A DNA stretch of 64,000 bases from Escherichia coli (GTDB lineage Bacteria; Pseudomonadota; Gammaproteobacteria; Enterobacterales; Enterobacteriaceae). Position 1 is the stretch's first letter, and each line of letters begins with the position of its first letter. Below, one piece after another: positions 15,016-17,872 of the stretch. Where the stretch lies: NCBI RefSeq assembly GCF_003334765.1, contig NZ_QOWT01000008.1; one strand, written 5' to 3'. Under the pieces are notes generated by a model, which worked only from the letters and a program-made list of their open reading frames with translations, ran no database searches and was not told the DNA's origin. The translations under genes and the position numbers were made by a program.

Positions 15016-15037
15016 TATAATCCGTCGATTTTTTTTG
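15016..15037 (+). promoter_or_regulatory. upp promoter -10 (TATAAT) and initially transcribed GATTTTTTTTG tract
   Basis: TATAAT at 15016-15021 followed by CCGTCG and an 8-T run; matches the upp UTP-sensitive start-site selection / reiterative transcription arrangement. Confidence 0.65.
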
Positions 15038-15063
15038 TGGCTGCCCCTCAAAGGAGAAAGAGT

Positions 15064-15690
15064 ATGAAGATCGTGGAAGTCAAACACCCACTCGTCAAAC
15101 ACAAGCTGGGACTGATGCGTGAGCAAGATATCAGCACCAAGCGCTTTCGCGAACTCGCTTCCGAAGTGGGTAGCCTGCTGACTTACGAAGCGACCGCCGA
15201 CCTCGAAACGGAAAAAGTAACTATCGAAGGCTGGAACGGCCCGGTAGAAATCGACCAGATCAAAGGTAAGAAAATTACCGTTGTGCCAATTCTGCGTGCG
15301 GGTCTTGGTATGATGGACGGTGTGCTGGAAAACGTTCCGAGCGCGCGCATCAGCGTTGTCGGTATGTACCGTAATGAAGAAACGCTGGAGCCGGTACCGT
15401 ACTTCCAGAAACTGGTTTCTAACATCGATGAGCGTATGGCGCTGATCGTTGACCCAATGCTGGCAACCGGTGGTTCCGTTATCGCGACCATCGACCTGCT
15501 GAAAAAAGCGGGCTGCAGCAGCATCAAAGTTCTGGTGCTGGTAGCTGCGCCAGAAGGTATCGCTGCGCTGGAAAAAGCGCACCCGGACGTCGAACTGTAT
15601 ACCGCATCGATTGATCAGGGACTGAACGAGCACGGATACATTATTCCGGGCCTCGGCGATGCCGGTGACAAAATCTTTGGTACGAAATAA
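15064..15690 (+). CDS. upp: Uracil phosphoribosyltransferase
   Basis: ORF track 15037..15690 begins at an in-frame GTG; true start [16 protein letters not shown] (208 aa) has SD AAAGGAGAAAG upstream. Confidence 0.95.
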
Positions 15691-15775
15691 AGAATAAAAA
15701 TAATTAAAGCCGACTTTAAGAGTCGGCTTTTTTTTGAGTAAAGCGCCTATAACACATAATACAGAGGATAATACT

Positions 15776-17065
15776 ATGACGCGCCGTGCTATCGGGGTGA
15801 GTGAAAGACCGCCACTTTTACAGACAATCCCGCTTAGTTTGCAACATTTGTTCGCCATGTTTGGTGCAACCGTCCTGGTGCCCGTCTTATTTCATATTAA
15901 CCCGGCGACTGTACTGTTATTTAACGGTATTGGAACGCTGCTGTATCTCTTCATCTGTAAAGGGAAAATTCCGGCTTATCTTGGTTCCAGCTTTGCCTTT
16001 ATTTCACCGGTATTGTTACTGTTGCCGTTAGGGTATGAAGTCGCGCTGGGCGGCTTTATTATGTGCGGCGTGCTGTTCTGCCTGGTTTCTTTTATCGTGA
16101 AGAAAGCGGGGACCGGCTGGCTGGACGTGCTGTTTCCACCTGCGGCAATGGGCGCAATCGTTGCCGTCATCGGTCTGGAGCTGGCGGGCGTAGCTGCCGG
16201 TATGGCGGGTTTACTCCCGGCTGAAGGGCAAACGCCAGACTCCAAAACCATCATCATCTCTATTACCACCCTGGCGGTCACGGTTTTAGGTTCCGTGCTG
16301 TTTCGTGGTTTCCTGGCAATTATCCCGATTTTAATTGGCGTGCTGGTGGGGTACGCGCTCTCTTTCGCAATGGGAATTGTCGATACCACGCCGATTATTA
16401 ATGCTCACTGGTTTGCGCTGCCAACCCTCTATACGCCGCGCTTCGAGTGGTTTGCCATTCTGACTATTCTGCCAGCGGCGTTAGTGGTTATTGCCGAACA
16501 CGTAGGGCACCTGGTAGTAACGGCTAATATCGTCAAAAAAGATCTGCTGCGCGATCCAGGTCTGCACCGTTCGATGTTTGCTAATGGCTTGTCGACCGTG
16601 ATTTCCGGCTTCTTTGGCTCTACGCCAAATACTACTTACGGAGAAAACATTGGCGTGATGGCGATCACCCGTGTTTACAGTACCTGGGTTATCGGCGGGG
16701 CGGCGATTTTCGCTATCCTGCTTTCCTGCGTCGGTAAACTGGCTGCCGCTATCCAGATGATCCCATTGCCGGTGATGGGCGGCGTTTCGCTGCTGCTTTA
16801 TGGTGTCATCGGTGCTTCCGGTATTCGTGTTTTGATCGAATCGAAAGTGGATTACAACAAAGCACAGAACCTGATCCTGACTTCCGTGATTTTGATCATC
16901 GGCGTCAGTGGCGCGAAGGTAAACATCGGCGCGGCGGAGTTAAAAGGTATGGCGCTGGCGACCATCGTCGGTATCGGCTTAAGTTTGATCTTCAAACTGA
17001 TCAGTGTGCTGCGCCCTGAAGAAGTGGTGCTGGACGCAGAAGACGCGGATATAACAGACAAATAA
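15776..17065 (+). CDS. uraA: Uracil:H+ symporter
   Basis: ORF track 15734..17065; start reset to [21 protein letters not shown] (429 aa); polytopic NCS2-family membrane protein. Confidence 0.93.
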
Positions 17066-17073
17066 TGTACCGA

Positions 17074-17094
17074 CCGGGCAGTGTTGCTGCCCGG
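17074..17094 (+). terminator. Hairpin downstream of uraA
   Basis: CCGGGCAG-tgtt-gCTGCCCGG, 8-bp stem 9 nt after the uraA stop; weak U-tract. Confidence 0.4.
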
Positions 17095-17159
17095 TTCAAA
17101 CATCATGGGATTCTGTGGTAAACTTCTCGCGATTTTGTGAAATCCTGGTTGAGGTATCT

Positions 17160-17861
17160 CTGAACACACCGGCACAGCTCTCTTTGCCACTTTATCTTCC
17201 TGACGACGAAACCTTTGCAAGTTTCTGGCCGGGGGATAACTCCTCTTTACTGGCCGCGCTGCAAAACGTGCTGCGTCAGGAACATAGCGGTTACATCTAT
17301 CTCTGGGCACGCGAAGGCGCGGGGCGCAGCCATCTGCTGCACGCGGCTTGCGCGGAATTGTCGCAGCGTGGCGATGCGGTGGGCTATGTCCCGCTGGATA
17401 AACGCACCTGGTTTGTTCCGGAAGTGCTCGACGGTATGGAGCATTTGTCGCTGGTCTGTATCGACAACATTGAGTGTATTGCAGGCGATGAGTTGTGGGA
17501 GATGGCGATTTTCGATCTCTACAATCGAATTCTGGAATCGGGCAAAACACGGTTGTTGATCACCGGCGATCGTCCACCGCGGCAGTTGAATCTGGGATTA
17601 CCGGATCTCGCGTCGCGACTCGACTGGGGGCAGATCTACAAATTGCAGCCACTTTCTGATGAAGATAAGTTGCAGGCGCTACAGTTACGCGCGCGTTTGC
17701 GTGGTTTTGAACTGCCGGAAGATGTGGGGCGTTTCTTGCTGAAGCGGCTCGACAGAGAAATGCGCACGCTATTTATGACGTTGGATCAGTTGGATCGTGC
17801 GTCGATTACCGCGCAACGTAAGCTGACCATTCCGTTTGTGAAAGAAATTCTGAAGTTGTAG
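17160..17861 (+). CDS. hda: DnaA-inactivating AAA+ protein Hda
   Basis: ORF track 17115..17861 (GTG, 248 aa); a 233-aa form would start at CTG 17160 preceded by GAGG; I recall CUG initiation being reported for Hda; AAA+ Walker motifs present. Confidence 0.8.
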
Positions 17862-17872
17862 ATAAGGTGTTT

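Follow-up and report, generated by a model that had tools for sequence, protein, structure and literature searches.

The CTG start codon of hda in Escherichia coli and its conservation in Enterobacterales

Where does translation of hda begin? The gene encodes the DnaA regulatory inactivator Hda, the key factor turning DnaA-ATP into DnaA-ADP after replication initiation, and the question arises in a 64,000-nucleotide stretch of E. coli DNA, hereafter called the window. The mechanical ORF of this gene, 17115..17861, is opened by a GTG codon at 17115-17117 and encodes 248 amino acids, as stated in the initial annotation, in which it was also pointed out that CTG 17160 would give a protein of 233 amino acids. 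Both statements agree with the translation, as the CTG at 17160-17162 lies in frame with GTG 17115, 15 codons downstream, and its product has 233 residues. With a probability of about 95%, we consider that hda occupies positions 17160-17861, that the 233-aa Hda is initiated at CUG 17160 under the direction of GAGGU, and that the 45-nt stretch from the GTG to the CTG is untranslated. As shown by the literature and by the comparison below, the 30S subunit binds GAGGU, and the CUG, located 5 nt downstream, is read as fMet. The resulting 233-aa product bears the clamp-binding motif in its N-terminal tail, at residues 6-11, and the 45-nt "extension" is untranslated leader or promoter DNA that is open in frame by chance in K-12.

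The site is embedded in the gene order upp-uraA-hda, with arsC (yfgD) and bepA on the opposite strand. Sequence comparison showed that positions 17060-17870 are identical to E. coli K-12 MG1655, and a 901-nt query from this locus was found in 5426 of 5426 complete E. coli genomes. The ORF list also over-extends both neighbours: upp was listed at 15037-15690 from GTG 15037 (217 aa), and the ATG at 15064, preceded by a Shine-Dalgarno (SD) sequence, begins MKIVEV, while uraA was listed at 15734-17065 from TTG 15734 (443 aa), the RefSeq start being 15776 (429 aa).

Several features immediately upstream of the two codons distinguish them. First, GAGG occupies 17151-17154 on the plus strand, followed by the 5-nt spacer TATCT and then the CTG; the distance of 6 nt given in the initial annotation is right when the count runs from the final G of GAGG to the first base of the CTG. 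The complete SD element, GAGGT, spans 17151..17155, is invariant in the 80 Enterobacteriaceae loci described below, and forms an anti-SD duplex of -6.9 kcal/mol for CTG 17160, which ranks within the top ~8% when 20-nt windows of the sequence are compared. Second, the corresponding duplex for GTG 17115 reaches -4.0 kcal/mol, an unremarkable value in the top ~22%, and is provided by a weak GGGA located 4 nt upstream. The in-frame near-cognate codons ATC 17142 and CTG 17145 were also considered as starts and rejected, as both are devoid of an SD (+0.3 kcal/mol).

The CTG start of hda is already known: it was shown experimentally in 2008, as far as the account given in EcoGene 3.0 goes, and it stands in the reference annotation. 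In a strain with identical sequence, RefSeq/PGAP annotates hda at 17160-17861 (702 nt, WP_001307333.1), and in K-12 the gene b2496 is placed at 2618075..2618776 of NC_000913.3 (702 nt, NP_416991.2), encoding the CTG-initiated 233-aa Hda. The gene described herein has the same sequence, coordinates, start codon and SD as K-12 hda and is that gene, with no difference between them. In EcoGene 3.0, the CTG start is attributed to Su'etsugu 2008 (PMID 18977760 / PMC2662290), and the N-terminal evidence for Hda is also referred, at second hand, to that paper. The mention of CUG initiation for Hda in the initial annotation is borne out by this citation, and the N-terminal analysis suggested there as a check had already been published according to the same source. 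The second suggested check, ribosome profiling, is likewise available. In the supplement of the tetracycline ribosome-profiling (TetRP) study, hda has 747 nt in the 2006 annotation and 702 nt in that of 2014, a shift of 45 nt, and the manual inspection of hda is recorded as "3. 2014", indicating a signal at the version-3 site, i.e. the CTG; the automated call was "no change", and the signal was placed at the CTG by manual inspection only. The proposal that CTG 17160 is the true start is in line with RefSeq, with Su'etsugu 2008 as cited in EcoGene 3.0, with TetRP, and with the comparison across species reported below; the same four kinds of evidence identify 17160..17162 on the plus strand as an initiation codon decoded as fMet. 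According to EcoGene 3.0, yfjD follows hda as the second E. coli K-12 gene with a confirmed CTG start, which was predicted from conservation and the ribosome-binding site and confirmed by start-codon mutagenesis. Like hda, yfjD is a chromosomal K-12 gene whose true CTG start had been passed over in favour of a canonical codon close by; unlike hda, it belongs to another protein family, and its wrong start (TTG) lies downstream of the CTG, whereas the wrong GTG of hda lies upstream.

The identity of the protein and the position of its N-terminus are consistent with the shorter form. The hda CDS (17160..17861, plus strand, 233 aa and stop) is defined by annotation, profile match, PDB 5X06 and codon-position entropy. 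Hda matched NCBIfam NF005982 with 476.6 bits (cutoff 268) over profile positions 1-235 of 235 and TIGR03420 with 281.4 bits (cutoff 194.8), and its close homologues carry PF00308 (Bac_DnaA) and PF22688 (Hda_lid). When the 248-aa form was used, the profiles started at residue 14 (NF005982) and residue 21 (TIGR03420). Chain E of PDB 5X06 matched Hda over its full length, residues 1-233, the deposited chain consisting of a tag followed by MNTPAQ and the remaining residues. The structure and its paper number Hda from 1 to 233, with the motif 6-QLSLPL-11, which contacts the clamp cleft, and Arg153 (Kim 2017). In agreement with that numbering, residues 6-11 of the 233-aa form read QLSLPL (codons 6-11, positions 17175..17192, plus strand, as identified from the translation and Kim 2017), and residue 153 is the arginine finger of Box VII. 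RIDA activity, the stimulation of DnaA-ATP hydrolysis together with the DNA-loaded clamp, has been established for this exact protein (Kim 2017). Because the N-terminus of Hda carries the clamp-binding motif, the correct start fixes both the biochemical protein and its residue numbering. The motif starts at residue 6 in the 233-aa form versus residue 21 in the 248-aa form; in the wider Hda family, sampled as 50%-identity representatives, it begins at residue 2-14 in 119 of the 123 representatives where it was found, with a mode of 4.

To place the codon in its evolutionary context, 86 species were compared, comprising 80 Enterobacteriaceae hda loci together with Yersinia, Erwinia, Proteus, Hafnia, Dickeya and Photorhabdus, from at least six Enterobacterales families. 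At the codon corresponding to 17160, all 86 species have CTG, with CDS identity falling as low as 68%, and GAGG with a 5-nt spacer precedes it in 85 of the 86, the neighbouring bases being variable; GAGGT is invariant across the 80 Enterobacteriaceae loci. Judged from these alignments, the arrangement of CTG and GAGG is far beyond chance. The use of leucine codons provides a second line of evidence. Among the 27 columns occupied by leucine in all 86 species, codon 1 alone is nucleotide-invariant, the other 26 using three to six leucine codons, with TTG occurring somewhere in 23 of the 26. Codon 1 is also the sole nucleotide-invariant codon among 132 degenerate columns in which the amino acid is invariant. 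Since it is nucleotide-invariant among all-leucine columns, codon 1 fits an initiation codon and not an ordinary leucine codon. Two elements of this analysis are mildly new, namely the order-wide invariance of the CTG and its SD, and the suggestion that a conserved extended -10-like element overlaps the old GTG start; both fit the established picture and add little to it. Outside the order, the nearest Hda relatives fetched (L088, L089 and L090; 52-63% identity) have the called starts GTG, GTG and TTG, respectively, with an in-frame stop 1-7 codons upstream of the called start. On these three cases, which are anecdotal, hda may favour non-AUG starts more widely.

The second of these elements concerns the DNA around the GTG itself. 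A putative extended -10-like element, TG-n-TAAACT, occupies 17116..17124 on the plus strand and was recognised from conservation, with a predicted transcription start site (TSS) at about 17131-17132. All 80 Enterobacteriaceae loci share T17116, G17117, T17119, A17120, A17122, C17123 and T17124, while G17115, the first base of the GTG, varies. The pattern TGnTAnnnT is present in 86 of 86 species, with T-12, A-11 and T-7 kept and the TG one base upstream of the hexamer, and, depending on the species, 39 to 45 nt separate the -10-like hexamer from the CTG. These observations suggest that hda has its own sigma-70 extended -10 promoter at this site, with a start near 17131-17132. The putative extended -10 would take its TG from the last two bases of the "GTG", and transcripts starting from this promoter near 17131 would omit the GTG. 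The codon at 17115..17117 (plus strand), which opens the 248-aa ORF, is not the start codon. A consensus promoter and terminator scan of 16900-17300 returned no call; the -35-like TTCAAA scores 8/12 by our own count versus a scan threshold of 9/12. In Kim 2012 (PMC3415461), the only TSS is one of 2 reads that falls within uraA, at a distance of 620 nt upstream from the former hda start, and none is listed at the predicted site; a literature search for a mapped hda TSS found nothing relevant.

Downstream of the putative -10 element, the stretch GATTTTGTG (17131..17139, plus strand) carries a conserved CG(A)TTTT at the predicted transcription start, in which T17133 and T17134 are invariant. Its surroundings resemble those of upp, which also lies in the window: hda reads TAAACT-tctcgc-GATTTTGTG (17125-17139), and upp reads TATAAT-ccgtc-GATTTTTTTTGTG (15016-15039). 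The common layout consists of a -10 hexamer, 5-6 nt, and then G-A-T-run-G-T-G, and the codBA promoter may be named beside them. The T-run of hda has 4 nt versus 8 in upp, and the likeness to upp and codBA is a resemblance only. The upp and codBA promoters are characterised by UTP-sensitive start-site selection and reiterative transcription. The main text of a genome-wide study of reiterative initiation (PMC12709180) does not name hda. The stretch GATTTTGTG may represent a short T-tract where transcription begins, or what is left of a terminator. A DnaA box was also considered at TGTGGTAAA (minus strand TTTACCACA, 8/9 to TTWTNCACA) and was rejected, the window containing 107 such matches versus 106.6 expected.

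Transcripts entering hda from upstream have to be considered separately, as those from the TSS inside uraA, or from uraA read-through, would carry the GTG. A GC-rich, terminator-like hairpin, CCGGGCAG-tgttg-CTGCCCGG, was recognised by folding and as an inverted repeat at 17073..17095 (plus strand); it begins 8 nt past the uraA stop, is devoid of a T-run, is kept in most of the 80 Enterobacteriaceae loci, and was not called by the consensus terminator scan. When positions 16950-17300 were scanned against Rfam (E<=1), no family was returned. Because the hairpin lacks a T-run, uraA read-through is possible, and the structure may act as a uraA terminator of weak or atypical kind, letting transcription pass into hda. 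Such transcripts provide the setting for dual initiation, in which the CTG yields the main 233-aa product and a minor 248-aa form is made from the GTG on uraA-derived transcripts in K-12-like strains. The plausible read-through, the weak TSS inside uraA assigned to hda (Kim 2012, PMC3415461), and the frame that is open in K-12 speak for this explanation; however, TetRP manual inspection assigned hda to "3. 2014" and not to "4. multiple", the SD at the GTG is poor, and the extension is not kept even within Escherichia (L003, L005). Taken together, dual initiation appears very unlikely. Because the extension is not conserved within Escherichia, any 248-aa isoform would be strain-specific and probably functionless.

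A second, stronger hairpin is found in some lineages. A structure that spans the -10 element and ends in a T-run reaches -19 to -23 kcal/mol in Kosakonia/Phytobacter, Hafnia and Pluralibacter; the strong -10-enclosing hairpin with its T-run was observed in L032, L035, L036, L049, L070 and L021 (Kosakonia/Phytobacter group), L085 (Hafnia) and L078. In those lineages, a terminator-like structure overlaps the putative hda promoter. As a conserved part of the start site, this hairpin was rejected, since E. coli, Klebsiella and others have it only in weak form or not at all.

Initiation at the GTG alone would require the 45 nt upstream of the CTG to be coding sequence, and the comparison speaks against this on several grounds. 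First, a stop interrupts the 15 "extension" codons in 60 of the 80 Enterobacteriaceae, an in-frame GTG occurs at the E. coli position (17115) in only 7 of the 80, and 46 of the 80 lack any in-frame ATG, GTG or TTG in the interval running from the closest stop upstream to the CTG. Second, the leader carries 1-nt indels, even within E. coli: in strain SCPM-O-B-8794 (L003), a 1-nt insertion ~14 nt upstream of the CTG (AAATCCCTGG versus AAATCCTGG) puts GTG 17115 out of frame. Third, entropy by codon position over the 45 nt upstream of the CTG is 0.70/0.71/0.66, indicating no periodicity. Downstream, where periodicity is strong, the first 30 codons give 0.19/0.04/0.69 and the 100 codons that follow give 0.14/0.04/1.09. 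The comparison points to CTG 17160 independently of the literature, and it shows a 45-nt "extension" that behaves as non-coding DNA. Translation from GTG 17115 with a main product of 248 aa, the form given by both the 2006 annotation and the raw ORF, has in its favour that this codon is the first canonical start of the open frame, that non-curated databases widely contain the 248-aa protein, and that the weak GGGA stands 4 nt upstream (-4.0 kcal/mol). These points are outweighed by the broken frame, the missing periodicity and the insertion in L003; in addition, the first 13 residues of the 248-aa form lie outside the best family profile (NF005982), and the TetRP signal and the published experiments, as EcoGene 3.0 reports them, favour the CTG, so that this explanation is effectively refuted. 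With a chance close to nil, a start at the downstream TTG of codon 9 (17184), giving 225 aa as in some automated Klebsiella, Serratia and Pantoea annotations, can be set aside: such calls exist (P0077, P0118; KPN_02819, 678 nt) and TTG is a canonical start, but there is no SD at 17184 (-1.7 kcal/mol), 42 of the 86 species have CTG or TTA at codon 9, which lies inside the clamp motif, codons 2-8 are conserved in a coding manner, and the structure and the requirement for the clamp motif contradict it.

Initiation of the 233-aa Hda at CUG 17160 raises the further question of why an inefficient codon has been retained. In reporter constructs, CUG initiates at ~1-2% of the level of AUG. Because the CTG is never replaced by TTG, GTG or ATG, each of which is one base away, in the 86 species, selection would appear to keep the weak start, and this strict retention suggests, at the level of sequence, that the weak start itself is selected. 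The invariance of the codon is consistent with a function in keeping Hda scarce. Raised Hda leads to delayed initiation and SOS induction (Kim 2017, introduction). A selected weak start would fit this known sensitivity of the cell to the dosage of Hda. The gene infC, encoding IF3, provides a parallel: its AUU start is conserved and autoregulated, as has been shown experimentally, and IF3 discriminates against near-cognate starts. Both genes combine a conserved, inefficient near-cognate start with dosage sensitivity; they differ in that infC uses AUU within an experimentally shown autoregulatory loop, whereas hda uses CUG, where any such loop would be hypothetical. We also considered, as a speculative and improbable extension, that the 5' region of hda is a conserved low-output module composed of the extended -10 promoter, the G-A-TTTT tract, with its upp- and codBA-like layout, and the selected CUG. 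If true, such a module would make the amount of the DnaA inactivator depend on the pyrimidine-nucleotide pool and on the discrimination of start codons by IF3.

The remaining practical value of these results lies in annotation, where a single rule, CTG 5 nt after GAGGT, accounts for hda in all 86 Enterobacterales species compared. The prediction in the initial annotation that automated annotation would mis-call this start holds for naive ORF and gene callers and fails for RefSeq/PGAP, which annotates the CTG form. Outside the curated RefSeq entries, at least seven Hda N-termini were found, corresponding to 200, 225, 235, 238, 241, 248 and 258 aa, and the 248-aa form is present on at least 1000 contigs. 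The 225-aa form is exemplified by KPN_02819 (hda) of Klebsiella pneumoniae, given as 678 nt and 225 aa in the ortholog table of the Kim 2012 supplement (PMC3415461); this entry is a mis-annotation, because a start at codon 9 would cut the clamp-binding motif. In Yersinia, Erwinia, Proteus, Hafnia, Dickeya and Photorhabdus (L082-L087), all sequences read TGAGGTGCTT followed directly by CTG at about locus position 1501. For Yersinia, Erwinia, Hafnia, Dickeya and Proteus, 235-aa forms beginning MLLNTP have been called from a GTG inside the SD (GAGGTG), and because of this position the GTG has no ribosome-binding site of its own; in Photorhabdus, the gene caller took an upstream TTG (244 aa). RefSeq contains both 233-aa and 235-aa forms in the families of L082-L087, and its annotation is to this extent inconsistent. 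Public collections also hold the 238-aa forms, and the 200-aa form was found in Yokenella. The 241-aa Hda of Salmonella and Citrobacter is called from an ATG that lies in frame, 8 codons before the CTG. This ATG, ~24 nt upstream of the CTG, was observed in L004, L006-L008, L010-L014 and L016 (GATTTTATG); it is devoid of an SD, would fall only a few nt away from the predicted TSS, and is not kept in other genera.
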